DNA from: Rebecca billardiae RCC1528
Taxonomy: Eukaryota; Protista; Haptophyta
Reading direction: 5' to 3'
Assembly: GCA_965240325.2 (NCBI GenBank)
Contig: OZ251222.1
Coordinates: 1,550,001-1,614,000 of the forward strand
DNA length: 64,000 nt
In this document: piece by piece, positions 3 to 20,100 of the stretch
Layout of the letters: every line of letters starts with the position of its first letter
How positions within the stretch are numbered: position 1 is the stretch's first letter
Notes under the pieces: model-generated
Seen by the model: the letters and a program-made list of their open reading frames with translations, nothing else
Databases searched by the model: none
What the model was told of the DNA's origin: nothing
Position numbers and translations under genes: made by a program

Positions 3-3000
3 TTTGTGCGCCGGCTCGCTTGCACGCCGCATACCTCGCAGCTCGTGCTGCGCGGCTCTTACCTGCTCCGCGCGTACCTGCCGGCGCTGCCACGGCCTGT
101 GGCGGACCTTGACTTTCTCGCACTGTGCCCCAACGACGCTCCGCTGGTCGAATCCATGATCCGTGACGCGTGCGACCAGCGCGTGGCTGACGGCCTCGCG
201 TTTGCGCGCGGCGCCGTCTCCTCGCAGCGGCACTGGGAGGGCACGGAGCACCCGGGGCTCAAGCTGACGGTGGAGTGCCACGAGCTGAACGTCGGCTCCG
301 ACGCGTCGCGCGCGCCGGCGACGCATCGCTTCAGCGTCGACGTGGGCTGGGGCGATCCGCTGGTGCCGCCGCCGGGCGCGCTGCACGTGCGCGCCGCGCC
401 CGTGGCGGCAGGCGGCGCATCCGCCTGCGTTCCGCTCGCCGCACGGGCGGAGACGCTGCTGGCGTGGAAGCTTCACGGCCTCTTCGAGCACGAGAGCGCG
501 GGTCTGAGCCAAGCCGGCGTCCCCAAGGGCTACTGGCGCCCGAAGGACCTCTTCGACTGCTGCCTGCTCGCCACCGCCGGCGCGCGGCTCATGCGCGCGT
601 CCGCGCTGCGCGACGCGGTCGTCGCGGCCTTCGCCTCGCGCGGCTACCCGGTGAGCCGGCTGGTGCGGCTGGCGCACGGCCGCTTCGGGACGAGCACGAA
701 GAGCGCGCGCAATTACGCTCGTTGGCGTGCGTCCGTCCTCGCGAGCGCCCCGGCCGCCGCCGAGTCTGGCCGCCGGGGCGCGGCTGCGCCGATCCCCGAG
801 AGCGCGCAGGCATGCGTCGCAGCGCTCGCGCCGACGTGCGCCGCGGTGCTGCGCGAGCTGGGCTACGCGCCGCTGCCCGGCGAGACGCTCCCCTTCGCCC
901 CGGCGTGGCAGGTGGCCGAGCTCGAACGCACGCTCGCCTCCGCGCCGTCGCGCGTCGTCGTCGATCGCGCCGCGCCCATCACGCCGAGCACGGCGCCGCG
1001 CGCGGCGGCGCGCGAGCCGTCGGCGACCACCGCGACGGCGCCCGAGGCCCTCTTCATCGTCGGAGGCGCGAACCGTGCCAAGTGGGAGGAGACGGCCAAA
1101 GTGCTGGCCGAGTACGCCAGCCTGGTCGTGCCGTGCGCGTACACGCCGCCCGAGGAGCTGCGCTTCCCGCCCGGCCTGGCGGACGGCTCGACGCGCGCGG
1201 TGGACGTCGTGCACGCGCTCGCGCGCCACTGCCACAAGGCGCTCGGCCGCGCGTGCATCGTCGAGCTCGCGCTGCTCGAGCTGGCTGGCGGCGCGCGCCC
1301 GCTCGTGCTGCATCGGCTGCCAGCGCACGAGGAGCGCGGCTTCGCCCGCGCGCACGCCGGCCGCGCCGCGCGCTTCCACGCGCTCATCGGGTACATCGGC
1401 CCGGATGGCGGGCCGGTCGAGGTGCTCGAGGGCGATCTGGACGGCGAGATTGTGAGCCCCGTGCGCGGCGAGCGCGCGCACGGCTGGAACCGGTGCTTCC
1501 AGCCCGAGGGCCACGGGAAGACGCTGGGCGAGCTGGGCGAGTCGCTCGCGTACGTGCAGCCGCGCGTGCGCCCGCTGCTCGAGCTCGCCGCCATGCTCCG
1601 CACACCGCTCGCGTACGGCACCCTCGAGCGCAGCCGCGGGCTGTTTGAGCTGCACGTGAGCGTGCGCACGCCGAGCGAGCCGGAGGGCGGCGTGCCCACC
1701 TTCCGCGAGGCGTGCGGGCTGCTCGGCGTCAAGGCCGTCGTGATCGATAACGAGGGCGGCGCCACGCCGCGCCAGCTCATGACCGCCTCGTACACGCAGG
1801 GCTCGCTGCGCGACGCGCTCACCGCCGCGTTCGTGCTCGCGCGCCGGCTGAGCGCGCTCGGCTTCTGCGTGCTCCGAACCAAGGTGGAGGCTGGATTCCA
1901 CAACCCGGGCGTGCCGGCGACCGACGCGGAGGCCGCGGCGCTCTCGCCGCACAACTACTTCGAGGTGCACTGGAAGCTGCGCCTCCCGCGCGGTGGCGCC
2001 GAGCTGCCGGCGCTCGCGCGGCTCGCGGCGGCGCACGGTGCGCGGCTGTCGCGCTCGGCGCTCAAGCGCGCGAGCAGCGGCGGCGAGGGCGGCGTTGGGC
2101 ACGAGCAGCGCTTTGTCACGCTGCGCCTGTACGACTGCGGCCGCGAGCGCGCGGCCGAGCGCGTGCGCCGCCTGACCGACGAGCTCGCGGAGCACGGCTA
2201 CCACGTGCTCACCACCATCCGCGAGTACGCGGTGTACGACTCCAACGTGGCGATGGACGCGGGCTGGATCGATGCGCCTGGCCCCACCGCCAGGCCGGGC
2301 GGCCGCGCGAGCGGCGCGGCGCCGCAGACGCCCGCCGGCGCCGCGCGGGACGCGGCCGGCAAGCTGGGCGCCGACGCGCTCGCAACGGCTCACGAGCCGT
2401 TCGGGGCGGTAACGGTGCACTCGGGGCGAGCGAGCGCAGAGGCTCGGGGCCGAGTGCCCCCCAGAGGGTCGCAGCTCGACGCGTCGGCCGGCCGCGCGGA
2501 CGGTGCGACCGCGACGGCAGCGGTCGCGCGCACAGCCGCGCCGCCGCGCGGCGCTGCCGGCGGCCCCGCCGCCGAGGCCTCGGCCACGGCCGCGACGGAG
2601 GCACTGGGCGACCTCGTGCGTGGCGCGCTCTGGCACCGCGCGCACCCGGCGCGCGGCTGGGACCCTTCGCAGCTGCTCGGCGCTCTGCTGGCGGAGGTGG
2701 GCGCCGGCCGCGCGTCCGTGGCGTGGGAGCCCGAGCGCGGCGGCGCGGCGGCGCTCACCGGCGCCGACGGCGGCGCCGGGCGCGGCGGCGCCCGGCTCGG
2801 CCTCTTCCACTACAAGCAGAGCGTGAAGCACTGGACGCCAGCGCTGCTCCTCGCGCGCGGGCTGCTGCTGCGGCAGGACGGCCGCCATGCCACCCTCGTG
2901 GGCACGCCCTTCCCCAAGTTCTTCGAGCTCGGGCGCGACGGCGTCAGCCTCGCCGAGCTCGAGCACTGCGCGCTCCGCTGGGAGGCGACGGAGAAGCTGG

Positions 3001-4058
3001 ACGGCTCGATGGCGCTGCTCGTGTGCGACCGCGGGCGCTGGCGCGTGCTCACCAAGCGCGGCTTTGGCTCGGAGCAGGCGGCGTGGGCGGAGTCCTGGCT
3101 GCGCGCCCGCGCGGCGCACCTCCCGAGCGCGCTCGAGGCTGGGTGCACGTACGTGTGCGAGGTCGTGTCCCGCGCCAACTGGGTGGTGGTGCGCTACCCG
3201 CCAGAGCGGGAGGGCGTGTGGCTGTGCGCCGCGTACGGCCGAGACGGGGCCGAGCTCGAGCGACCGGCGCTCGAGGCGGTGGCTGCGCGCGCCGGGCTCC
3301 CCCTCGTGCCCCTCGTGGCGAGCGGCGTGCTGCGGCCCGCGCCAGCCGGTGGCGCGACCGGCCCGGAGGCGGGCGACGAGCCGGCGCGCGCGCGGCTTCG
3401 CGAGACGATCGGCGCGGCGCTCGATGCGCCGGACGGCCACCGCGCCGAGGGGCTCGTGCTGCGCTTCGTGCTGCCCGGCGGCGCAGCGCACCGCGCCAAG
3501 GTGAAGGCGCGGGCGTACGCGCGCCTGTACCGGCTGCAGGACGGGCTCACGCCGCGTGCCGCGTGGACCGCCGCCAAGGCTGGCGGCGTGGACGCGCTCG
3601 ACGCGCTGTGCGACTCGGCGCCGGAGGAGTTTGCGCACTACATGGCCGGCGTGCGCACGCTCACGCTCGCGGCGGTGTGTGACACGGCCGCCCAGGCGCA
3701 CATGGCTGTGCGCGCCGCCGCTGCCATGGGCCGCACGGATGCGCGCGGCCTCGCCGAGCTCCTGCGCGAAGCGAGCGCTTGGCCGGACGGCGCGCCCATC
3801 ACGCAGGCACAGCGCCGGTTGGCGCACAAGGCGCTCGCCGGCCGGCTCGGCGCGGCCGAGCTTGCGCTCGGCGCTGTCCAAGACGGCGGGCCCGACCGGG
3901 CGCGCGCGGCCCGCGGCGCGGCGCTTCTCGGCCAGCTCGACGCGACGGCGCGCCACGCGCTGTTCACTTTCGTGCCCGTCAGCGCACCGCAGGACGCACG
4001 CTCTCGGCATGTGCACCTGGCCGATGGCACTCGGCTACTCAATCACCAGCGGCACTAG
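3..4058 (+). CDS. Multidomain fusion (5'-partial): AbiEii/AbiGii-family nucleotidyltransferase + Ham1/ITPase-like + uncharacterised FExH-repeat domain + T4 Rnl1-like RNA ligase
   Basis: One intronless frame, open from the window edge (..FVRRLA..). AbiEii motifs LVLRGSYLL, RPVADLDF, VDVGWGDP, ETLLAWKL, RPKDLFD (~6-730). Ham1-like GGANRAKWEE..GDLDGEIVSPVRG..HGWNRCFQPEG..KTLGEL (~1050-1600). FELHVSV..YFEVHWKL..RFVTLR..EYAVYDSN..D.GW (~1640-2270). Rnl1 motifs PFPKFFE, EKLDGS (2991), YVCEVV, EGLVLRF, KVK (~2780-3560). Confidence 0.88.
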   Translation, partial: FVRRLACTPHTSQLVLRGSYLLRAYLPALPRPVADLDFLALCPNDAPLVESMIRDACDQRVADGLAFARGAVSSQRHWEGTEHPGLKLTVECHELNVGSDASRAPATHRFSVDVGWGDPLVPPPGALHVRAAPVAAGGASACVPLAARAETLLAWKLHGLFEHESAGLSQAGVPKGYWRPKDLFDCCLLATAGARLMRASALRDAVVAAFASRGYPVSRLVRLAHGRFGTSTKSARNYARWRASVLASAPAAAESGRRGAAAPIPESAQACVAALAPTCAAVLRELGYAPLPGETLPFAPAWQVAELERTLASAPSRVVVDRAAPITPSTAPRAAAREPSATTATAPEALFIVGGANRAKWEETAKVLAEYASLVVPCAYTPPEELRFPPGLADGSTRAVDVVHALARHCHKALGRACIVELALLELAGGARPLVLHRLPAHEERGFARAHAGRAARFHALIGYIGPDGGPVEVLEGDLDGEIVSPVRGERAHGWNRCFQPEGHGKTLGELGESLAYVQPRVRPLLELAAMLRTPLAYGTLERSRGLFELHVSVRTPSEPEGGVPTFREACGLLGVKAVVIDNEGGATPRQLMTASYTQGSLRDALTAAFVLARRLSALGFCVLRTKVEAGFHNPGVPATDAEAAALSPHNYFEVHWKLRLPRGGAELPALARLAAAHGARLSRSALKRASSGGEGGVGHEQRFVTLRLYDCGRERAAERVRRLTDELAEHGYHVLTTIREYAVYDSNVAMDAGWIDAPGPTARPGGRASGAAPQTPAGAARDAAGKLGADALATAHEPFGAVTVHSGRASAEARGRVPPRGSQLDASAGRADGATATAAVARTAAPPRGAAGGPAAEASATAATEALGDLVRGALWHRAHPARGWDPSQLLGALLAEVGAGRASVAWEPERGGAAALTGADGGAGRGGARLGLFHYKQSVKHWTPALLLARGLLLRQDGRHATLVGTPFPKFFELGRDGVSLAELEHCALRWEATEKLDGSMALLVCDRGRWRVLTKRGFGSEQAAWAESWLRARAAHLPSALEAGCTYVCEVVSRANWVVVRYPPEREGVWLCAAYGRDGAELERPALEAVAARAGLPLVPLVASGVLRPAPAGGATGPEAGDEPARARLRETIGAALDAPDGHRAEGLVLRFVLPGGAAHRAKVKARAYARLYRLQDGLTPRAAWTAAKAGGVDALDALCDSAPEEFAHYMAGVRTLTLAAVCDTAAQAHMAVRAAAAMGRTDARGLAELLREASAWPDGAPITQAQRRLAHKALAGRLGAAELALGAVQDGGPDRARAARGAALLGQLDATARHALFTFVPVSAPQDARSRHVHLADGTRLLNHQRH

Positions 4059-4559: not shown

Positions 4560-4680
4560 GGTTACCCAGGTGGACCAGGGGACCAGCGATCAATGAGACA
4601 ATGAGCCGTGATTGATCGTTATTGCTGACCAGGGCGGCGCCAGCGCATACAGAACAACGCAGGTTACCCAGGTGGACCAG
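4560..4680. repeat. 19-bp direct repeat GGTTACCCAGGTGGACCAG (4560-4578, 4662-4680) within degenerate ~100-bp units
   Basis: Exact copies read directly; both lie just downstream of CAGAAC, with AGCGCAT further upstream. Confidence 0.8.
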
Positions 4681-5118
4681 CGGCTCTTGATATGATATAT
4701 TGAGACGTGACAGTCATCTTGAATGACGACTGAGCTTCGTCAAGGTTGGATGAGCGGTGAGCCGCCCTTCGATAGTAATTGGGTACTCATGAAACAGCTT
4801 CATCCTTCGGTGATGAGCCGCCTGCTCGCTCGTCCGGAGCCACGTGCCCCCAACCCAACTCCCCAAACCAAAACTTGGTCACTACAGGTCGCGACTCGCG
4901 TGCAAGACTCACTCGCGCGGGTGAGTAATTAATAAGCAGCCCACGTCATCTCTGATCTCTATCATACATTATCCACGTGGGCACGCCGGTCGTGGCGCCA
5001 GGCCGGGGCGGGTGCGCACCCGTGCGCAAGCGGCGGCAGCGGCGGCCGGCCGCGCACGAAGGCGACGACCCTGCAGCAAAGAGGTACCCACCCGCCCCGC
5101 GCCGCGGTGCTCATTATC

Positions 5119-8100
5119 ATGGCCTTCGCCAACGCGAGTTCGGCACGTGCTGAGGAGGTGACCGAGCCCACTCCTGACGGAACGGCTGAGCTCCTGCGCC
5201 GCCCATCGCGCGACGAGCCTGGGCGCCTCCTCTTCCCCATCGCGTCCCTCTTCTTCTTCCACCGCGTGCTGCTGCCGAGCGTGCTGCTTGGCGGCGATGA
5301 CCCGCTCGGCTGCGTCCTTCTCGTCGCGTGCGTCTGCCTGCTCGGGTGCGAGGTGGGCGCACTGGCGCGAGGCATGCGCGCACAGGGCACGTGCACGTCG
5401 CTCAGCATGCCCTCCTTCTTCGGCGGCCCACAGGTACGGCGGTGCCACCGGCACCGAGCTGCTGGCTCGTGCCCGCGAGCGCCCGCGCGCGGCGAGCGTG
5501 CTCGCCTGAGCGTGAGGCCGTTGCGGCGGCGGCGGCGCGACGAGCCCCGCCCTCCTCGGGGCGCGCCCCGAAGCGGGCCAACCCTGGCGACCCCGTGACC
5601 CCGCGCCTCCCGGCGCGCGCCCGCCCACCGCCTCGCAGCACGAGCGACGCGTGCGCGGAGGACTCGCTGCGGGCACAGCGTGCTCTCCGTCGTCTTCCTC
5701 TTCTTCGACTGCTGCCGGCGGACGTACCGGCGCCTACACGTCGGCTGCATCGCTCGCCGCTCGCCGTGGCGTGCGGTGCCCGGCCCTCGTGCTCGCGATG
5801 ATCATGGCTTTGGCGCCGGCGGCGACCGCGCAGACCTCACTGCGCACTCAGCTCATCACAGATTACCCCGAGTGCTTCCCCGGGGGCAGCTTTGACGCCG
5901 ACTACTGCTCCAACAACGTCACCGGCTCCATGTGCGCGCGCGTGTGGCGCGGCTCCGCGTCCCTGCGCGTGCGCGCACCGCGCGGTGACGCGCGGTGAGC
6001 ACCCCGTGCGCGCCTGACTTGCACGGCCGCCTGCGCCGGCAACACGCACGCCCGCGGCGACGCGCAGCATCTACGGCGCTGTGGGCGGCACGGTGCCGAC
6101 GGAGCTCGGGAACTTCCACTCGCTCGGCTCACTGTAAGCCGGCGCTGCGCATGCGCCCCGCGCGCCATCTGCGGCGTGCGCGCTTCCGCTGGCCCTCGCT
6201 CGCCGATCCATGCCGCGCCCACGCTCCCTCACCGCGCCCGCGCGCTCGCACCGCAGCACTCTGCTCGGCAACGCCCACTCGGGCACCGTCCCGACCGAGC
6301 TCGGCACGATGTCGGCGCTCGAATCTCTGTGCGTGCGTGCAGCTCACATCGCGTAGGGCTGGCGTGCCACGCGTGGTGGCGCGATCGCACCCTCACTGAG
6401 CCGGTGCCCACCGCCGGCGCGCGCGCGCGCGCGCGCGCAGGCGCCTCGAGGACAACAACTTGGTCGGCACCGTCCCGTCCGAGCTGGGCTCGCTGACGCG
6501 CTTGGACGAAAACCTGTGCGCCGCCACCCCGCGCCTTCCCCGCAGCGGCGCACCAGTCAGCGGCTGACCCGTCGCACCCGGCCCGCATGCCGTTGCTCTT
6601 TCGGCCGGCCCGACAACCCTCCCACCTGGCAGCTCCTTCCAGGGCAACTCGCTCACCGGCACGATGCCGACGCACCTCGGCCAGCTCACGAGCGTGTACC
6701 TGTTGTGCGTGGCGCGCGTGGCTCGCCCTGCGTACCGTGCTCTTCGCTCGCAGCGTGCGGCACGTGCGGCCGCTCACCGGCGCCATCGCGGCACCTCGAC
6801 GCGCGCTCCCACGCCGCGCCAGCAAATTCGACGACAACTCTTTGACCGGAACCATCCCGACCGAGTTTGGGCGGCTGGCGAATGCGTATGGCCTGTACGC
6901 GCAGCCGAGCACGCCGTGCCGCGCGCCGCGCGCCTTCGCCGCGAACATCTGCTCATGCCCGGACGTCTGCGCGCGTGCTGCTGCTCACGGCTTAGGACCC
7001 TCGACGGCAACATGCTGACTCAGACCATCCCGAGCGAGCTGGGGCAGCTGGACTCGAGCTTGCACGAGCTGTGAGCGCAGCCGACGCGCTGCGCGCCCAC
7101 GCTGCGCGCGCCCACGCTGCGCGCTGCGCGCTGCGCGCTGCGCCTCGCCGGGAGCACGCGCGCGTGCGCCGCGCGTCGCAGCCCACCCTCGGCCGCACCC
7201 CCGCCCGCCGCAGCTATTTGCACTCCAACTCTTTGGCGGGGTCGATCCCGACCCATCTCGGCCAGCTGTCCGTCCTGGATGACTTGTGCGCGCCAGAGGC
7301 GCCGCGCCCCGCGCGCGGCGGGCGACGCGCACGCAGCTCTCCTCTCACGCATGTACGTCCAACTGTGGCGCTTGCGCGCGCGCTGCTCGCTGCAGGTACC
7401 TGCATTCGAACAGTCTCGTCGGGCCCATCCCATCCGAGCTGGGTGAGCTCACCGCTGTCAAGTTGATGTGCGCGCGGCGCACGCGCAGGCCGGTGCACCG
7501 CGTGCGCGCGCGCGGCTGGCGGCCCTCTCACCAGCGTCGACGCTGCGTGCTGCCCGCTCGCGTGCCGCGTTGCGCAGGATCCTCTATGGCAACATGCTCA
7601 CTGGTGGCCTACCGGTGGCGCTGGGAACCGGCTTGACGAGCATGCGCGCGCTTCTCCTTCAATCCAACTCGCTCGTCGGCGCCATCCCGGCCTCGCTCGG
7701 TGCGTGCAGCTCCCTGACCTACCTCGGCCTGAACTTCAACTCGCTCACGGGCACGCTGCCGACCGAGCTGGCCGGCATGACAAAGCTGCAGACGTTGGAG
7801 ATGATGGGCAACTCGCTGGGCGGGAGCCTTCCGACGAGCCTCGGCGGCCTGACGCAGCTGCAGTACCTGTACCTCGCCGAGAACGCTCTCACTGGCTCGA
7901 TCCCGGCCGCACTCGGTGCCTTGACCGCGCTCATGCACCTGTGGCTGTACACCAACTCTCTGGTCGGCTCGCTGCCGACGGCGGTGGCCGACATCGGCTT
8001 GCTTCAGAGCGTGGATTTGCGTGGAAATGCGCTGACCGGCCCCATCCCCTCTGAGCTGGGCGGCGCCTTCGGCCTGACCCAACTCGCTCTCTACGACATG

Positions 8101-11100
8101 TCGCTGGCGGGCGCCATCCCCTCAGAGCTCGGCCTGTGCACTCGACTCGCGTTCCTGGACGTGTACGGCAACTCTTTCTCTGGCAGCCTGCCAACCGAAG
8201 TGGGCGCACTCACCGCCCTGGGCGACCTGGTCCTCAACGGCATGTCCTTGACCAGCACCCTCCCATCACAGCTCGGCGCGCTGACCCGGCTCACCGAGCT
8301 GGCCATCGATGGTAACGCGCTGAGCGGCACGATTCCAGCGTCGCTCGGCGGCTTGACGGCTCTCACACAGCTCGACCTCTACTCCAACTCGCTGGCGGGC
8401 GCTCTCCCCACCGAGCTGGGCGCGCTGACCCGCCTCTGGTATCTGCGCGTCGACCGCAACTCGCTGAGCGGCACGATTCCAGCGTCGCTCGGCGGCTTGA
8501 CGGCTCTCATACAGCTCGACCTCTACTCCAACTCGCTGGCGGGCGCTCTCCCCACCGAGCTGGGCGCGCTGACCCGCCTCTGGTATCTGCGCGTCGACCG
8601 CAACTCGCTGAACGGCACGGTCCCCTCGGAGCTTGGCGCGCTGACTGCACTCTCATCTCTGAAGGCGTTCACCAACGCGCTCACCGGCACGATGCCAACA
8701 TCGCTCGGCGGCTTGACGGCACTCACGGATCTGAGTGCTGCGAGCAACTCGCTGGCGGGCAGGCTCCCCACGGAGCTCGGCCATTGCACGCGCGCCTGGA
8801 GCATCGGCCTCGACTTCAACTCCCTCACTGGGCCAGTGCCCTCCGAGCTCGGCTCACTCACTGCTCTTGCCTTCCTCGACCTGAACGACATGTCGCTGAC
8901 TGGTGCCCTGCCGTCCGAGCTGGGCTCGCTGACTGTTCTCTCACGGCTGGCCGCGTCCGGCAACGCGCTGAACGGCACGCTGCCCGCTGCGCTCGGCAAT
9001 ATGTCGGCTCTCGAGACGCTCTGGTTGCACACGAACACGCTCAGCGGCACCGTGCCGTCGGCGCTCGGCCTCCTCACGAGCCTGGTGTACCTGGAGGCGC
9101 ACACGAACCAGCTGACCGGTGCCGTCCCGTCTGAGATCGGAGCGGCGACGAGCCTGGTCGAAATAGACCTGAGGGCCAACTCTTTGTCGGGCTCCCTTCC
9201 CTCAGCACTTGGCGCGCTGCAGAGCCTCACGACGCTCGACCTGCAGACCAATTCGCTGACGGGCAGCATGCCGTCCGAGCTCGGCACGATTGGAGTGCTG
9301 GCGAACCTGGCCCTCTTGGACAACTCGTTGAGCGGCACCATTCCGCCGCAGCTCTTCTCGCCCAGCCTGGAGACCCTGTACCTCGAGGGCAACTCGCTGA
9401 ACGGCAGCATTCCAACCGAGATCGGCAGTTCCACGCTCGTGCGCTTCTTGTACCTCGGCAGCAACAGCCTCACTGGCACCGTCCCGCACGAGCTTGCGCA
9501 GCTGACGCTGCTGCAGGTGGTGTCCGCCCGGCAGAACTCGCTGAGCGGCACCGTGCCGACAGAGCTCGGAGCTCTCACGCAGTTCCTCTTCCTGTACTTC
9601 GACGGGAACTCGCTGAGCAGCGCCATGCCGACGGAGCTGGGCGTGCTGACGAGCGCCCTGCAGATGACGTTTGCAGGGAACGAGCTCACTGGCACGATTC
9701 CATCCGAGCTTGGAGCGTGCACGCGCTTGACATCGATTGCCTTAGAGCTCAATTCGCTCAACGGCGCGTTCCCGACCGAGCTGCTGCAGCTGACTGCCTT
9801 GCCTGCCGGCGGCTTCACGTACGACGGCCGCACCGCCGCCAACGAGCTGACGTCGTGCTCGGACGGCGGCTGCGTATGCGCTGGCTCAGAGGCGTTCAAC
9901 ACGACCAACGGCGCTTTCAGCCCTGACATCATTGACCTCGTCGTGTGCCCATCTCCGCCGCCACCTCGCCCACCGGCGCCGCCGCCGAGTCCGCCGCCCT
10001 CGCCCCCGCCCTCGCCGCCGCCAAGCCCTCCGTCGCCGCCGCCGTCGCCTCCTGCCCCGCCCCCGTCGCCGCCGCCGCCGCCCTCGCCGCCGCCCTCGCC
10101 GCCGCCGCCCTCGCCGCCGCCCTCGCCGCCACCCTCGCCGCCGCCGCCGCCCTCGCCGCCGCCCTCGCCGCCGCCGCCCTCGCCGCCGCCCTCGCCGCCG
10201 CCGCCCTCGCCGCCGCCCTCGCCGCCGCCCTCGCCGCCACCGCCGAGCCCTCCGCCGAGCCCTCCGCCAGACCTGTCCAAGCTCAAGGCACAGATGCGTG
10301 CAGCGGTGACCGAGTGCTTCCCCGACACCGACGAATTCGACCCGGCCCTGTGCAGCGCGTACTACAACGCCACGCTCATCGACTTCTCGGGGAACGCGCT
10401 CTCTGGTCCGATCCCTACCGAAGTGGGCTATTTGACCTCGGCGCTAGGGCTGTGGCTCCACACCAACTCGCTGTCTGGCCCGGTGCCGACAGAGGTCGGC
10501 TTGCTGACTGGCATGCAGCTGCTCTACCTCCAAGACGCTGGGCTGACGGGGACGCTGCCGACAGAGCTCGCATATCTGACGAGCGTGACGTCCGTGCGTG
10601 TGGACGACAACGCGCTGAACGGCACCATTCCAGCCTGGCTGGGCAATGCCACCAGCCTTCGGACTGTCTACTTCCACAACAACCACATGACCGGCACGAT
10701 CCCGCCCGAGCTGGGGCGGTGCACCGAGATGGAGCTCATGTACTTGCACGGCAACCGGCTCACGGGGCAGGTCCCATCCGAGATCGGCGCGATGACAGGG
10801 CTCAGAGTGGTGTACGCCCACACCAACAGCCTGTCTGGCACGCTGCCCACCACGCTCGGCGCGCTCACCCGCATCGAGGAGCTCTTCTTTCACACGAACA
10901 AGCTCACCGGCGCCCTGCCCACTGAGCTGGGTGGCGCGACGAGCCTGACGTGGCTCGCCGCCCAGCAGAACTCGCTGGCTGGTCGCATCCCGTCCGAGCT
11001 CGGGATGACCGACATGTACGCGCTCTACCTCTGGACCAACGAGCTGACCAGCAGCATCCCGTCGGAGCTCTTCAGCATCCAGAGCCTGACGGCGCTGTAC

Positions 11101-14100
11101 GCGCAGGCCAACTCGCTGGTCGGCAGCATCCCCACCGTGATCGGAGTGGCCACGCGCATGCAGTACTTGTACCTCGACACCAACTCGCTCACCGGCACGC
11201 TTCCGACAGAGCTTGGCAGCCACACAGCGGCAGAAGCCCACTCATTTGCGAGGAACTCGCTGGTCGGCACGATCCCTTCTGAGATCGGGCTTGTGAGCCG
11301 GCTGCAGGTGCTGACCCTCTTTAGCAACATGCTCACCGGCACGCTCCCATCGCAGATTGGCACCCTCACAAGTGCTATCAGTGTGCAGATGCAGTCGAAC
11401 TCGGTGAGCGGAGCGCTGCCCACTGAGGTCCTGTTGCTCACCTCGTTGCTGGCGGGGCAGTTCGGGTACGACGGCCTCACGCCGAGCACGACTGCGAACT
11501 GCGTTGATGGTGGCTGCCTGTGCGCAGCCACCCCTTTCAGCTCCAACGGCGGCTTCACCCCTGACCCGGCCGACCTCGTCGCCTGCCCGTCGCCGCCCCC
11601 TTTGCCCCCGCCGAGCCCTCCGAGCCCACCCCCCAGCCCACCGCCCTCACCGTCACCACCATCGCCACCGTCCCTCCCGCCGAGCCCTCCGCCCCCGCCG
11701 GCGCCGCCGGCGCCGCCTCCCAGCCCACCGCCGCTGGCCGTTCCACCGTCGCCACCCTTTCCACCGCCCTCGCCGCCACCCACGCCGCCGCCCTCGCCTC
11801 CGCCGGCGCCAACGTTGCGCGCACAGATGCGCGCAGACTACCCCGAGTGCATCGAGGAGTCTGGCGCCTTCAACGTGGCGGCGTGCAGCAGCATCGGGGG
11901 CGGCGTCGACTACAGCAGCAGCGCGCTCTCGGGCACGGTCCCCACGGAGATCGGCTACATGTCATCGATGCTCGACTTTCGCGTGTTCACCAACGTGCTC
12001 ACGGGTCCGCTTCCGACCGAGGTCGGGTTGCTGCCCAACCTGCAGCTGCTCTACGCGCACGGCAACTCGCTGACAGGGAGCGTCCCATCGCACTTTGGTG
12101 CGGCGACGAGTCTGGTGGTTCTGTCCCTTGGCCCCAACTCGCTGAGCGGCACAGTGCCATCCGAGCTCGGGCAGCTCACGCGGCTGGGGCAGCTCTATCT
12201 CTACGCCAACACGCTGACGGGCACGGTGCCGTCCGAGCTGGGCGCGCTCACGAGCGTCTCCAACCTGTGGATGGAGTCGAACTCGCTGAGCGGGGCGATG
12301 CCGACCGAGGTGCTGCTGCTCACGTCGCTTGGGACGGGCACCTTCACGTACGACGGTCTCACCTCGGCCACGCAGGGCACGTCGTGCGCTGACGGCGGCT
12401 GCGTGTGCGCGGCATCGCCCTTCGCCAACAACACCGCGTTCTCGCCGGACCTCGCCGACCTGCTGACGTGCCCGTCGCCGCCGCCGACGCCGCCGCCTTC
12501 GCCGCCCCCGTCGCCGCCGCCGCCTCCCAACCCACCTCCACGCCCGCCGCCGAGCCCACCTCCGCCGAGCCCGCCAATGCCGCCGCCAAGCCCACCTCCC
12601 TCGCCGCCACCACCCGGCCCACCCTCGCCGCCGCCGTCGCCGCCGCCGAGTCCACCTCCACCGACAAGCCCTCCGCCCAGCTCGCCACCATCGCCTCCGC
12701 CGAGTCCACCGCCCCCACCGCCGTCTCCTCCGCCGGCGCCGACGCTGCGCGCACAGATGCGCGCAGACTACCCCGAGTGCATCGAGGAGTCTGGCGCCTT
12801 CAACGTGGCGGCGTGCAGCAGCATCGGGGGCGGCGTCGACTTCAGCAGCAGCGCGCTCTCGGGCACGGTCCCCACGGAGATCGGCTACATGTCATCGATG
12901 CTAGGCCTTTATGTGTTCACCAACGCGCTCACGGGTCCGCTTCCGACCGAGGTCGGGTTGCTGCCCAACCTGCAGCAGCTCTACGCGCACGGCAACTCGC
13001 TGACGGGGGCCGTCCCATCGCACTTTGGTGCGGCGACGAGTCTGGTGATTCTGTCCCTCGGCCCCAACTCGCTGAGCGGCACAGTGCCATCCGAGCTCGG
13101 GCAGCTCACGCGGCTGCAGGAGCTCTATCTCTACGCCAACGCGCTGACGGGCACGGTGCCGTCCGAGCTCGGCGCGCTCACGAGCGTCTCCAACCTGTGG
13201 ATGGAGTCGAACTCGCTGAGCGGGGCGATGCCGACCGAGGTGCTGCTGCTCACGTCGCTTGGGACGGGCACCTTCACGTACGACGGTCTCACCTCGGCCA
13301 CGCAGGGCACGTCGTGCGCTGACGGCGGCTGCGTGTGCGCGGCATCGCCCTTCGCCAGCAATGCAGGCTTTTCGCCGGACCTCGCCGACCTGCTGACGTG
13401 CCCGTCGCCGCCGCCGACGCCGCCGCCTTCGCCGCCCCCCACGCCGCAGCCACCCCCGTCGCCGCCGCCGCCTCCCACCCCACCTCCAAGCCCGCCGCCG
13501 AGCCCACCTCCGCCGACCCCGCCAATGCCGCCGCCAAGCCCACCTCCCTCGCCGCCACCACCCGGCCCACCCTCGCCGCCGCCCTCGCCGCCGCCGCCGC
13601 CCGCGCCGCCTCCATCCCCGCCGCCGAGCCCGCCGCCCCCCTCCCCTCCGCCGAGGCCTTCCCTGCGTGCTGTGCTGGCGTTCCTCTACCCCGAGTGCTT
13701 TGAGGAGACTGGCTCCTTCAACGAAGCCACGTGCAACGGCATTGGTCCGAGCATCGACTGGTCTGTCGCTTCGCTGACTGGCACGATCCCGACAGAGATT
13801 GGCTACATGGTCGCGCTCGACTCGATGCACATCTTCACCAACTCGCTCACCGGCACCATTCCGACCGAGATCGGAGCGCTCACAGCTCTGACCAATTTCT
13901 TCGTGAATGGAAATGATGTGATTGGTTCTCTCCCCACGGAGGTGCTACTGCTGACCTCGCTGGACCCAGGGGTTGGATTCTGGTACGACGGCATCACCGC
14001 AAGCAACCAGGGCACGGACTGCGCGGATGGCGGCTGCGTGTGCGCTGGCACAAGCTTTGCCAGCAAGGGCAACTTCATCCCAGACCCGGCTGATCTTCTG

Positions 14101-17100
14101 GCCTGCGGGTCGCCGATGCCACCTCCCTCGCCGCCGCCGCCATTGCCACCGCCATCGCCGCCACCCAAGCTGCCGCCGAGCCCGCCGCCAAGCCCGCCGC
14201 CGCCGATGCCGCCGCCGTCACCGCCGCCGCTGTTGCCACCGTCGCCGCCGCCGATGCCGCCGCCGTCGCCGCCGCCGTCGCTGCCGCCGTCGCCGCCGCC
14301 GATGCCGCCGCCGTCGCCGCCGCCGTCGCTGCCGCCGTCACCGCCGCCGATGCCGCCGCCGTCGCCGCCGCCGTCGCAGCCCCCGCTCCCGCCCCCAAGC
14401 CCGCCTCCGCCGCCAACGCCGCCGCCGTCGCCTCCGCCATCATCACCACCGTCCCCACCACCGGGGCCGAAGCCGCCGCCATCGCCGCCACCTACTCCGC
14501 CACCATCACCGCCACCGCCGCTGCCGAAGCCACCGCCGAGCCCACCGCCGCTGCCGCCAACGCCGCCGTCGCCACCGCCGTCCCCGCCACCATCGCCACC
14601 ACCAAGCCCACCACCTTCACCAAGCCCACCGCCGTCGCCACCGCCGTCCCCGCCACCGTCTCCACCACCAAGCCCACCACCTCCACCGAGCCCGCCGCCG
14701 TCACCGCCACCATCCCCGCCACCGTCTCCGCCGCCAAGCCCGCCACCCTCACCGCCGCAGCCACCGCCAAGTCCCCCGCCAAGTCCACCGCCGTCGTCAC
14801 CTCCGCCATCACCACCAGCGCCACCACCATCACCGCCGCCAAGCCCACCACCTCCACCGAGCCCACCTCCGTCACCACCACCGCCACTGCCTCCTCCCAG
14901 CCCACCACCGTCACCACCACCTTCGCCGCCGCCGGCGCCTCCTCCCAGCCCACCACCGTCACCACCACCTTCGCCGCCGCCGCCGGCACCACCTCCTCCA
15001 CCGTCGCCGACCCCATCACCGCCGCCCTCGCCGCCACCGCCCTCGCCGCCGCCGTGGGTGTCGCGTGGCGGTCCGGCGACGCCGTACAACGACACGATCG
15101 AGTACAACAGCGCGCAGAGCGACTTCCAGTCCGACCAGGCGGGCAACACGTTCGACGTGAGCATCGACCTGCTGAGCGGCGACGACACGCTGGTCGTGGG
15201 CTCGGCGGGCGACTCGTCAGCGGGCAACGGCGCGGGCGAGTCCGTGGTCGGCACGATCCTCGGCAGCGAGGGCACCGACGTGATCACCGTCGGCGGCGCC
15301 GGCGACGGCCTGAACCAACCGACGAGCGTGGGCGGCTCGATCGAGCTCACGGTCGACGGCGGCGACGGCGCGGACACGATCACGGTGGGCGGCGCGGGCA
15401 AGGGCGCGTCCAGCTCCGGCGCGCTCGGCGGCTCGAGCAACGTGACGGTGTTCGGAGGCGCCGGCAACGACACGATCAGCGTGGGCGGCGCGGGCCGTGG
15501 CGACTACGGACCCAACACCGGCGGTGACGCGAGCGTGTGGATCGACGGCGGCGACGGCGGCGACACGATCGTCGTGGGCGGCGGTGGCGTCGGCGCGAGG
15601 AGTGGATTTGGCGGCGACATCACCGTGCACGTCGACTCCGGCGCTGGCGACGACTATCTGAGCTTGGGCGGCGGTGGGTTTGGCTACTGGAGCGGCACTG
15701 GCGGCTCGGCCGAGCTGTACGTGAACGCGGGCGAGGGCGACAACACCGTGCTCGTGCCCACCGTGGGCGGTGAGGCGAAGGGCGGTGGCAAGGGCGGCGA
15801 TGGGAGCTTGCACGTGCTCGCCGGCGGCGGCGCGGACACGGTGCAGGTCGGCGGTGGCGGAGAGGGCTACATCGGTGGCCAGTTCGGAGGCGACGCCACC
15901 GTGTACGTGTCCACTGGCGGCGGGGACGATGACATCTCCGTCGGCGGGAGCGGCATGGCCCAATATGGCTCAAAGGGCGGCGGCTTGACCGCCGTGGTGG
16001 ACGCTGGTGACGGTGACAACTCGATCACGATCGGGGGCTCGGGCGGTGCCCTCAGCAGCGCTGAGTCCGGCGCATCGAACGTTGCTGTGACGGCGGGCGA
16101 CGGCGACGACGTGATCGTCGCGGGTGGCGTGGGCTACGCGACTAGTGGCGCCAAGTCAGGCGACTTCACACTTGCGGTCGACGCCGGAGGCGGGAACAAC
16201 GACATCGAGGTGGGCTCAGCGGGCGGCGGCCTAAACGCTCTCCCCGGCTCGCTCGAGGCGACGATCAGCACCCTCGGCGGGAACGACACGATCGTCGTCG
16301 GCGGCGGCGGGTACGGCTATGGCGCCACGGACGCAGGCGACGTTGTCGTGAACGTGTTTGCGGGCGACGGAGACGACAGCGTGGCGATTGGCGGCGGCGG
16401 CGACGCCTCTGCTTCTTCCGCGTGGGGAGGCAGCGTGTACGCGAATGTGAGCGCGACCGGCGGCGATAACGTCGTCGCCATCGGCGACAGCGGGAACGGC
16501 GTAAGCAGCGGCACTGGTGGCCACGTGGACGCTCGGGTCGAGCTCGGCGACGGCGCGGACGTCGTGACCATCGGCGGAGCCACCCCACAGTCTGGCCTCG
16601 GGAGAGGCGGCGATGTGACGTCGTACGTCCGTTCGGGCGGCGGCGCGGACGTCGTGACCATCGGCGACGCGGGCGATGCGGACACTGCCAGTTGGTACAC
16701 TACCAGCTTTAGTCAGGGTGGCAACACGCGCGCGTTCGTGTTTGCGGGCGAGGGCGACGACCGCGTGTACGCGGGCGACGCGGGCGACACGCTGGCTTCG
16801 ATGTTGAACTTCGGCGGCCATGCGTACGCGAACGTGCACGGCGGCGCGGGTGACGACGTTCTGCGCGGCGGCAACGGCGGCGACGCTGTCGCTGGCTCGG
16901 GCGAGGGCGGCGACGCGCTGATCAAGCTGTATGGCGACGACGGCGACGACCGGCTGTACGGCGGCGACGACGGCCTTGCCCTGGAGATGGGCGCCGACCC
17001 GGGCGAGGCGACGACGCACCTGCTCGGCGGCGGCGGCAACGACTACATCCGCGGCGGCACCGGGTACAACTACGCGGCCGGTGCGCGCGTGCGCCCCGCG

Positions 17101-20100
17101 CTGCGCCGCGCCGCACGCGCGCCCTGCGCCTCTGCGCATCCGCGTGCGCGGCACCGGCACGCGCTCACTCGCAGCGGCGCGGGCACACCGGCACACCGCG
17201 CGCTCGGCCGGCAGGCGGCGCCGGCAACGACACGATCCGCGCGGGTGACGGCGGTGCCTACAACAATGTCACCAACGCCTCCGCCACGGCGTACACCATC
17301 GCGCGTGGCGGCGATGGCGACGACATGCTCACCGGCGGCACTGCCGGCGCCGACCCGACCGGCGGCATCAGCGGCGGCACCGCTGTGAGCAAGCTCTACG
17401 GCGACGCCGGCGACGACGTGATCACCGGCGGCGCGGCCGGCGGTGCCGACCCGGGCGCGGTGACCACGTACATCTACGGTGTGCGCCGCGCGTGCAGCGG
17501 CGGGTCGCGGCACCGCCACGGCCAACGCTGAGCGCGCTTCGAGTGTGCGCGTGCGCGCTCGCGCGTGTTCCTGCCCCCGCGCGCGCCACAGGCGGCACCG
17601 GCGAAGACACGATCTACGCAGGCGAAGGCCGCGCCATCATCAGGGGTGCGTGGCCGCTGGCGCGTGCCGCGCGCTCCGCCAGTGCGCCGCCGCGCGTGCG
17701 TCGCTGAGCGCCCTCGCCGCCGCTCGCGCGTCGCGACCGCGCGCACAGGCGGACCGGGCGTGGACACGATCTACACGCGCGACAACGGCTTTGTGGACAC
17801 GCTGTACGTCGAGTGGACGGACTCGTGGGACGTGGACCCGTTCGACATCGTGATCACGCCACCCGCGCCGCCGCCCTCGCCGCCGCCGCCCTCGCCGCCG
17901 CCGTGGGTGTCGCGTGGCGGTCCGGCGACGCCGTACAACGACACGATCGAGTACAACAGCGCGCAGAGCGACTTCCAGTCCGACCAGGCGGGCAACACGT
18001 TCGACGTGAGCATCGACCTGCTGAGCGGCGACGACACGCTGGTCGTGGGCTCGGCGGGCGACTCGTCAGCGGGCAACGGCGCGGGCGAGTCCGTGGTCGG
18101 CACGATCCTCGGCAGCGAGGGCACCGACGTGATCACCGTCGGCGGCGCCGGCGACGGCCTGTACCAAGCGACGAGCGTGGGCGGCTCGATCGAGCTCACG
18201 GTCGACGGCGGCGACGGCGCGGACACGATCACGGTGGGCGGCGCGGGCAAGGGCGCGTTCAGCTCCGGCGCGCTCGGCGGCTCGAGCAACGTGACGGTGT
18301 TCGGAGGCGCCGGCAACGACACGATCAGCGTGGGCGGCGCGGGCCGTGGCGACTACGGACCCAACACCGGCGGTGACGCGAGCGTGTGGATCGACGGCGG
18401 CGACGGCGGCGACACGATCGTCGTGGGCGGCGGTGGCGTCGGCGCGAGGAGTGGATTTGGCGGCGACATCACCGTGCACGTCGACTCCGGCGCTGGCGAC
18501 GACTATCTGAGCTTGGGCGGCGGTGGGTTTGGCTACTGGAGCGGCACTGGCGGCTCGGCCGAGCTGTACGTGAACGCGGGCGAGGGCGACAACACCGTGC
18601 TCGTGCCCACCGTGGGCGGTGAGGCGAAGGGCGGTGGCAAGGGCGGCGATGGGAGCTTGCACGTGCTCGCCGGCGGCGGCGCGGATACGGTGCAGGTCGG
18701 CGGTGGCGGAAAGGTCTACGGCGGTGGCCAGTCCGGAGGCGACGCCACCGTGTACGTGTCCACTGGCGGCGGGGACGACGACATCTCCGTCGGCGGGAGC
18801 GGCATGACCCAGTCTGCTACAAAGGGCGGCGACTTGACCGCCGTGGTCGACGCTGGTGACGGTGACAACTCGATCACGATCGGGGGCTCGGGCGATGCCC
18901 TCAGCAGCGGTGAGTCCGGCGCATCGAACGTTGCTGTGACGGCGGGCGACGGCGACGACGTGATCGTCGCGGGTGGCGTGGGCTACGCGACTAGTGGCGC
19001 CAAGTCAGGCGACTTCACACTTGCGGTCGACGCCGGAGGCGGGAACAACGACATCGAGGTGGGCTCAGCGGGCGGCGGCCGAAGTGCTCGCCCCGGCTCG
19101 CTCGAGGCGACGATCAGCACCCTCGGCGGGAACGACACGATCGTCGTCGGCGGCGGCGGGTACGGCTATGGCGCCACGGACGCAGGCGACGTTGTCGTGA
19201 ACGTGTTTGCGGGCGACGGAGACGACAGCGTGTCGATTGGCGGCGGCGGCGACGCCTCTGCTTCTTCTGCGTGGGGAGGCAGCGTGTACGCGAATGTGAG
19301 CGCGACCGGCGGCGATAACGTCGTCGCCATCGGCGATGGCGGGAACGGCGTGAGCAGCGGCACTGGTGGCCACGTGGACGCTCGGGTCGAGCTCGGCGAC
19401 GGCGCGGACGTCGTGACCATCGGCGGAGCCACCCCACAGTCCGGCCTCGGGAAAGGCGGCGATGTGACGTCGTACGTCCGTTCGGGCGGCGGCGCGGACG
19501 TCGTGACCATTGGCGACGCGGGCGATGCGGACACTTCCATCTTTTTTAGTCAGGGTGGCAACACGCGCGCGTTCGTGTTTGCGGGCGAGGGCGACGACCG
19601 CGTGTACGCGGGCGACGCGGGCGACACGCTGGGTTCGATGTTGAACTACGGCGGCCATGCGTACGCGAACGTGCACGGCGGCGCGGGTGACGACGTTCTG
19701 CGCGGCGGCGATGCCGGCGACGCTGTCGCTGGCTCGGGCGAGGGCGGCGACGCGCTGATCAAGCTGTATGGCGACGACGGCGACGACCGGCTGTACGGCG
19801 GCGACGACGGCCTTGCCCTGGGCGAGGGCGCTCATCCGGGCGAGGCGACGACGCACCTGCTCGGCGGCGGCGGCAACGACTACATCCGCGGCGGCACCGG
19901 GTACAACTACGCGGCCGGTGCGCGCGTGCGCCCCGCGCTGCGCCGCGCCGCACGCGCGCCCTGCGCCTCCGCGCATCCGCGTGCGCGGCACCGGCACGCG
20001 CTCACTCGCAGCGGAGCGGGCACACCGGCACACCGCGCGCTCGGCCGGCAGGCGGCGCCGGCAACGACACGATCCGCGCGGGCGACGGCGGTGCCTACAA

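Follow-up and report, generated by a model that had tools for sequence, protein, structure and literature searches.

The closest described relatives of the locus examined here are the AbiE and MenAT modules, two-gene operons in which a nucleotidyltransferase (NTase) of the AbiEii/DUF1814 family lies downstream of its partner. The characterized AbiEi and MenA antitoxins block the toxin by binding and by induced autophosphorylation. A report on AbiEii gives phosphorylation of T65 as the sole antitoxin route in vivo, and the same residue is also important for AbiEii activity (10.64898/2026.01.19.700257); a separate study describes the same phosphorylation mechanism for MenT1 and MenT3 (PMC11375011). 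Trimming by RNase PH is reported to suppress MenT3, whose tRNA mark is not reversed by MenA3 (PMC7450476); the RNase PH trimming is a precedent for reversing an NTase mark. Kongming KomB is an inactive HAM1 sensor of dITP with its catalytic Asp replaced by His (10.1101/2024.12.20.629578).

Here we describe a variant AbiE-type module whose partner, the FExH domain, is unrelated and enzyme-like; the variant is real, conserved, and widespread. The FExH domain studied here is part of an algal fusion protein encoded in the window (the whole 64,000-nucleotide stretch of Rebecca billardiae RCC1528 DNA that was analyzed).

Results

Architecture of the window protein

The features of the fusion protein are collected in Table 1. 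Pfam searches with the 1,351-residue ORF product matched AbiEii at residues 3 to 251, Ham1 at residues 452 to 513, and an Rnl1-type RNA ligase at residues 951 to 1078, and gave no match for residues 541 to 759. The motif I lysine of the ligase (EKLDG) is intact at window positions 2994-2996, and a 5' kinase domain is absent from the fusion. The database copy of the protein (P0127) carries 47 extra N-terminal residues in comparison to the 5'-open ORF. Its closest named homologues sharing the domain order are Emiliania P0130, with the same order and an FExH domain 57% identical, and Prymnesium P0129, with partially the same order and an FExH domain 58% identical. Another homologue, P0128, lacks the ligase: its AbiEii and Ham1-like regions are followed by FExH, where the protein stops. 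Residues 1-47 of P0127 (upstream of window base 1) and the starts of P0130 and P0128 contain a run of hydrophobic residues and then basic ones, resembling a membrane anchor; one giant-virus copy (L002:5779-6654) has the same start as these eukaryote-type fusions. Elsewhere in the window, positions 5100-17388 form an intron-containing gene region for a very long leucine-rich-repeat, proline-rich protein, which marks the window as eukaryotic.

Table 1. Features of the fusion protein and their window coordinates
Feature	Position	Strand	Size or evidence
5'-open ORF: AbiEii-type NTase, Ham1-like, FExH, and Rnl1-like RNA ligase	3..4058	+	1,351 aa
AbiEii/DUF1814-type nucleotidyltransferase	9..755	+	PF08843 E 1e-15; PADLOC AbiEii E 7.5e-45
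Ham1/ITPase-like domain, Leu at the catalytic Asp position	1041..1601	+	PF01725 E 1.5e-9, alignment
FExH domain	1638..2273	+	
FExH half 1, predicted ferredoxin-like: E9-x-H11-x-S/T13, K37, R85-x-K87-x-E89	1638..1895	+	
Linker joining the FExH halves, conserved G-V-P-x-x-D-x-E	1896..1955	+	
FExH half 2, predicted ferredoxin-like: Y112-F-E114-x-H116, S143, T166-x-R168, E201, D206	1956..2240	+	
C-terminal D212-x-G-W215 motif, half 2 only	2241..2273	+	D212 147/148, W215 146/148
Rnl1-like RNA ligase core	2853..3464	+	PF09511 E 1.3e-8, PF09414 E 2.8e-7

Duplication and predicted fold of the FExH domain

All of the motifs quoted in the initial annotation (1640..2270) are in frame in the ORF: FELHVSV (1644-1664) and LSALGFCVLRTKVE (1848-1889) in half 1, and YFEVHWKL (1956-1979), LAEHGYHVLTTIRE (2184-2225), and YDSN..D.GW (2235-2267) in half 2. 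The internal duplication proposed there was borne out by alignment of the half-1 and half-2 profiles, for which hhalign gave a probability of 97.0, an E value of 8.8e-11, and a score of 56 over 82 columns. A reversed profile reached 1.7 and the best of 40 column shuffles reached 16.3 (score 20.9); the half-versus-half score is far above these controls, so the duplication goes beyond chance.

The AlphaFold2 model built with 119 sequences (pLDDT 93.2, pTM 0.89) comprises two beta-alpha-beta-beta-alpha-beta units from residue 5, one in each half, in agreement with the pseudo-symmetric fold that had been suggested. Each half adopts the common ferredoxin-like fold (half 2 versus 1vi7_A: Z 7.0, rmsd 2.5, 66 aligned). 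For the whole domain, Foldseek found no match in the PDB (TM at most ~0.34, rmsd 8-17), and the wide VIA fold search gave a best Z of 7.6 for a single half, with Z of at least 8 in none of 48,161 chains. The second VIA look gave a best Z of 8.4 (rmsd 8.2, 145 aligned), its best rows being ACT/AHAS regulatory domains. No 2H, CYTH, or AbiEi structure was among the fold matches listed, which leaves room for such folds. No RNA holder was among the entries listed. The BFVD matches to the whole domain were exclusively to 10 uncharacterized phage and Klosneuvirinae proteins (TM 0.52-0.79).

Conserved residues and a putative active site

Conservation was assessed in an alignment of 148 members at <70% identity, dereplicated from 261 (98 bacterial, 40 phage, 5 eukaryote-type, 4 metagenome, and 1 giant-virus). 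Seven residues (R85, K87, E89, E114, H116, E201, and D206) are present in 148/148 rows, H11 and D212 in 147, R168, S143, and W215 in 146, and T13 in 145; E9 (143), T166 (142), N145 (141, Ser in the query), and K37 (136) follow. The residue after H116 is K, G, P, or N, and K118 is lost in phages. The paired Glu/His residues singled out in the initial annotation are thus conserved in homologues, and the metal-binding or phosphoesterase site proposed for them is plausible on this pattern of conservation, with R85, K87, E89, E201, D206, and D212 as further invariants. A set of 4 Glu, 2 His, 2 Asp, and 4 basic residues is the expected make-up of a metal-dependent phosphate-handling enzyme, and the ten near-invariant residues (143-148 of 148) suggest a metal/phosphate active site.

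In the AlphaFold2 model, the conserved charged residues alternate along the strands and face opposite the helices. Covariation analysis (398 sequences, Meff 326, 203 columns) coupled L10 with A65/A69, V115 with V181, and W117 with T185/L188, all hydrophobic neighbors packed on the helices; because these neighbors are set against the helices, the charged residues are turned to the open face of each sheet. Couplings between the halves were weak and mixed with noise (F8-V204, z 6.4; A38-L147, 6.3, also V39-L147; M53-H116, 4.1; E89-E201, 3.7), and suggest that the open faces of the two halves may meet. From the strand register and this weak covariation, we infer one shared pocket for the conserved residues.

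The motifs differ from those of known phosphate-handling folds. A 2H phosphoesterase has two conserved HxT/S motifs. Half 1 of FExH has H11-x-T13, but this is the only conserved HxT: at the candidate second motif, H141-x-S143, His is found in 119/148 rows and Arg or Lys in all five eukaryote-type rows, the query included. The ExExK motif of the CYTH/triphosphate tunnel metalloenzymes is likewise absent, FExH having ExHxT and ExHxK.

Extent and annotation of the family

The description of the domain as unnamed holds for Pfam, NCBIfam, and PDB sequences, which returned no family for it, and for the ESM Atlas, which gave only unnamed clusters (the named ones yielding nothing useful, 0.80); it does not hold for PADLOC and PHROGs. 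The PADLOC AbiEi models span the whole domain (PDLC02277, E 8.6e-49, residues 8-217; PDLC02279, E 1.2e-38), and PADLOC's operational definition, an AbiEi-model match beside AbiEii, applies here with AbiEii in the same polypeptide. Pfam AbiEi, by comparison, matched none of 119 members at E 0.1, nor the query at E 1, and the N-terminal winged helix-turn-helix of AbiEi/MenA is absent from the FExH model (pLDDT 93). On these two grounds, we read the PADLOC label as positional. In PHROGs the domain corresponds to phrog_25995, of unknown function, and to the C-terminal part of phrog_1247 (MazG-like pyrophosphatase), where the MazG label fits the N-terminal domain only and the FExH part is unannotated. 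"Ankyrin" names attached to some homologues in UniRef had no Pfam support and were rejected. A description of FExH was not found in the literature searched on the AbiEii/DUF1814 context, although the supplements of PMC5062991 (Burroughs and Aravind 2016) or PMC7824862 may list it. Given the PADLOC matches and this literature result, FExH is catalogued, though not characterized in any of the papers listed.

Neither the query by itself nor A6 picked up a relative in the viral scans. The profile search found 833 proteins among 7,995 scored candidates, and the full library comprises 2,385 FExH clusters at 50% identity. Members occur in bacteria, large phages, algae, and giant-virus contigs, those of bacteria being mostly stand-alone proteins of ~210 residues. 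Some FExH genes show an apparent frameshift or a break at a contig end (L134, L139 at 4572-5600, L001 at 5815-6629, and L140).

The NTase partner in bacteria

The constant partner of FExH is the AbiEii-type transferase, not a ligase. An NTase of this type was present at 76 of the best 80 of 517 confirmed bacterial loci (16 fused, 59 directly downstream, and 1 upstream), and of the four without one in this best-80 set, two lie on contigs that end within 640 bases. Among 201 evenly sampled Actinomycetes genomes, FExH occurred in 8. The NTase subfamily occurred in those 8 as well, next to FExH in 7 of them, and no genome of the 201 had the subfamily without FExH; one of the 8 is the center genome, picked because it has the pair. 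A scan of 41 long representatives detected AbiEii in 21, Ham1 in 6, an RNA ligase in 1, a HipA-N hit in 1, and nothing in 12. No recurring DNA-binding regulator or defense-island neighbor was seen at FExH loci. Four loci (L026, L041, L043, and L080, at about 6600-9100) have a single FExH gene followed by two tandem AbiEii-type NTases.

The partner NTases keep the RGS, DxD, K, and KDxxD motifs, which are also intact in the window NTase; the closest solved structure is 9hlo_B (E 6.9e-10). At the phosphoacceptor position, two residues before DxD and equivalent to T65 of Streptococcus AbiEii, the 76 NTases have Pro (71), Ala (3), Val (1), or Ser (1), and the window NTase has Val. Since 75/76 lack Thr or Ser, these partners are not controllable by the phosphoacceptor route, and another control is needed. 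An ESMFold2 complex of the FExH-NTase pair from the Planctomycete locus L019 scored 0.48, compared with 0.19 for the best of three controls (contacts agreeing by at least 86% between runs, partner pLDDT at least 79, alignments unused, and Mn included unlike in the calibration). In the calibration, 51 of 78 solved pairs passed the mark, against 2 of 108 mismatched ones, but passes at 0.60 or under came from only 5 of the 78 solved pairs and from all 4 of the 180 mismatches that passed; the L019 result is therefore weak and adds little on binding.

Viral copies, the Ham1-like module, and RNA ligases

At 57 phage loci, an N-terminal MazG domain with EExGEL accompanies FExH in 39, of which 38 also have the second acidic motif. 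No NTase neighbor recurs across these loci, and neighbors other than the MazG fusion mostly reflect clade synteny. In a midpoint-rooted tree of 153 of 413 sequences, the 31 phage tips group together as a single clade (support 0.92). Two giant-virus contigs have FExH alone. The available part of PMC7824862 treats jumbo-phage MazG in general terms only. Immediately upstream of the MazG-FExH gene of one phage is a gene for the anti-CBASS protein Acb1 (L113:4157-4675).

Neither the catalytic Asp nor the His of KomB was present in the Ham1-like domain (0/15 rows for each), and KomB 8zsg was among its best PDB sequence matches (E 3.4e-11); from its sequence, the module is likely nucleotide-binding and inactive. 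This subfamily, with neither residue, may represent a second kind of inactive HAM1 nucleotide sensor. In the tree, all 14 Ham1-fused members, including that of the window, group with the ligase fusion P0258 in one 27-tip clade (support 0.96).

Ligases were infrequent neighbors. They were found near 1/80 bacterial loci (best 80 of 517), 6/57 phage loci (three of these from one phage group), 2 near-identical loci of 10 from metagenomes, and one Deinococcus plasmid, as counted with ligase profiles that divergent ligases could escape. A bacterial operon (L146:1-2526 and L147:330-3698) encodes all four window domains as three genes (RNA ligase, Ham1-FExH, and AbiEii), and this arrangement lends genuine weight to the idea that members of that subfamily act on RNA; the operon's ligase is PF09414-type, a subfamily that differs from the algal Rnl1-like one. 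Genes for HAD_PNKP and an AAA_33 kinase (L135/L137) and an HD-kinase (L023) also occur near ligases. DUF6915 is encoded near FExH and an RNA ligase on the Deinococcus plasmid (L006:7397-7747) and in a phage (L137:2910-3305).

Discussion

Our tentative preference is that FExH is a metal-dependent, phosphate-cleaving enzymatic counter-partner of the AbiEii-type NTase, a reading that we consider possible but somewhat short of probable. Its two ferredoxin-like halves would enclose one putative metal-dependent phosphate-cleaving site, with Glu9, Glu89, Glu114, Glu201, His11, His116, Asp206, and Asp212 as candidate metal ligands and Arg85, Lys87, Lys37, and Arg168 as candidate phosphate holders. The site would hydrolyze the nucleotide linkage made by the NTase, or its free nucleotide product; the linkage could be extra NMPs on an RNA 3' end, such as the AbiEii/MenT toxins add to tRNA. 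Phages would keep orphan FExH to undo such damage or to clear nucleotides, and the algal fusion would have arisen when an RNA ligase and an inactive Ham1-like module that binds nucleotides joined the NTase-FExH core. A counter-partner would explain the strict pairing, the upstream position, the loss of the phosphoacceptor, and the orphan phage copies. Against it, the NTase may not be toxic: T65 matters for AbiEii activity, and NTase and FExH form a single protein at 16 of the best 80 of 517 loci. The lack of a recurring DNA-binding regulator or defense-island neighbor and the weakness of the couplings between the halves also count against it. In addition, the fusions with MazG and Ham1 favor free nucleotides over RNA ends, and cooperative repair would account just as well for the two independent recruitments of a ligase. 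The most specific form of the proposal, a new metalloenzyme family with a two-ferredoxin site that erases NTase-toxin marks from tRNA 3' ends, acting as a DUF1814 "eraser" antitoxin, as a MazG-fused anti-defense factor of jumbo phages, and in an algal membrane-anchored RNA-repair protein, is rather improbable as a whole.

The initial annotation was right about the symmetry and the likely active site, and it over-weighted the ligase: end-healing for the Rnl1 ligase finds little support in the occasional presence of ligases (1 of the best 80 of 517 bacterial and 6/57 phage loci) and their absence from P0128. We regard cooperative RNA end repair more broadly, in which FExH would remove a 2',3'-cyclic or 3'-phosphate and the NTase would rebuild the 3' end or the ligase seal it, as unlikely. 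Two ligase subfamilies have joined FExH separately, Rnl1-like in haptophytes and PF09414-type at L146/L147, in P0258, and on the Deinococcus plasmid; the ligase-linked and Ham1-fused members fall within the window protein's 27-tip clade; and in phage phiM12, genes for Rnl1 and a CCA-adding enzyme lie within 5 kb. The rarity of ligases, however, counts against end repair, as do the separate HAD_PNKP/AAA_33 and HD-kinase genes where ligases are near, the fusion's lack of a 5' kinase, the replacement of the second 2H-like His in every eukaryote-type row, and the MazG fusion, which repair leaves unexplained. Less probable still is a toxic or defensive effector, nucleotide-depleting or RNA-cutting, that the NTase would inactivate as in MNT-HEPN or for which it would make a signal read by the Ham1-like sensor as in KomB-dITP. 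The phage MazG fusion suits nucleotide depletion, and the missing catalytic Asp and the match to KomB recall that sensor, but the KomB-defining His is missing as well, most bacterial loci lack Ham1 (6/41 long representatives have one), FExH stands alone in phages and giant-virus contigs, and a gene upstream of the NTase occupies the usual antitoxin position.

The NTase, RNA ligase, MazG, and Ham1 folds all split NTP into NMP and PPi, a chemistry common to the four partner folds that would suit an FExH acting as an inorganic pyro- or triphosphatase or nucleotidase and driving or finishing such reactions. By analogy, its acidic and basic strand lining may also resemble that of the triphosphate tunnel enzymes (compare PMC8233210). 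This role ranks lower again in our estimate: the Ham1 partner looks inactive, cells already possess pyrophosphatases, and strict pairing with one NTase subfamily suggests a specific substrate. The counter-partner, end-repair, effector, and pyrophosphatase readings would all make FExH a phosphate-handling enzyme. A role without catalysis, whether as an antitoxin that binds its toxin or as a ligand-binding regulator of the ACT kind, is what the PADLOC "AbiEi" label implies, and it is the least probable of the readings considered; it draws on the AbiEi model matches, the ACT/AHAS rows among the structural matches, and the L019 complex, and it is opposed by the ~10 invariant charged residues that persist in the 40 phage rows with no adjoining NTase, by the absence of Pfam AbiEi from the 119 members, and by a partner NTase that lacks the phosphoacceptor.

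Comparison with known systems

The window Ham1-like domain resembles Kongming KomB in being a Ham1 fold that lacks the catalytic Asp and is fused or coupled to another enzyme, whereas it lacks the Asp-to-His change and its coupled partners are FExH and an NTase, not Sir2 and a deaminase. FExH is like Pnkp and the 2H CPDases in its association with RNA ligases at a minority of loci and in the HxT of half 1, and unlike them in having one conserved HxT, a ferredoxin-like order, and an NTase as its main partner. Strands lined by alternating Glu and Arg/Lys would liken it to the CYTH/triphosphate tunnel metalloenzymes, but it has ExH(x)K and RxKxE in place of ExExK and is built of two ferredoxin-like repeats. 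If FExH is catalytic, it would constitute a new class of enzymes that can be tested in a simple two-gene system, as well as a candidate phage counter-defense and a rare bacterial conflict module retained in eukaryotes; if it proves to be an eraser, DUF1814 toxins would gain their first dedicated "eraser" antitoxin.

The closest likeness is to AbiE and MenAT, with which the FExH loci share an AbiEii-family NTase with intact catalytic motifs, a two-gene operon with the partner upstream, and a partner that PADLOC calls AbiEi. They differ in that the place of the winged helix-turn-helix AbiEi/MenA is taken by FExH, whose two ferredoxin-like halves carry enzyme-like residues, and in that the linked NTase lacks the Thr/Ser phosphoacceptor and is often fused; FExH also has orphan copies in phages and members in eukaryotes. 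A large NTase subfamily without the phosphoacceptor is tied to an enzyme-like partner that PADLOC counts as an ordinary AbiEi.
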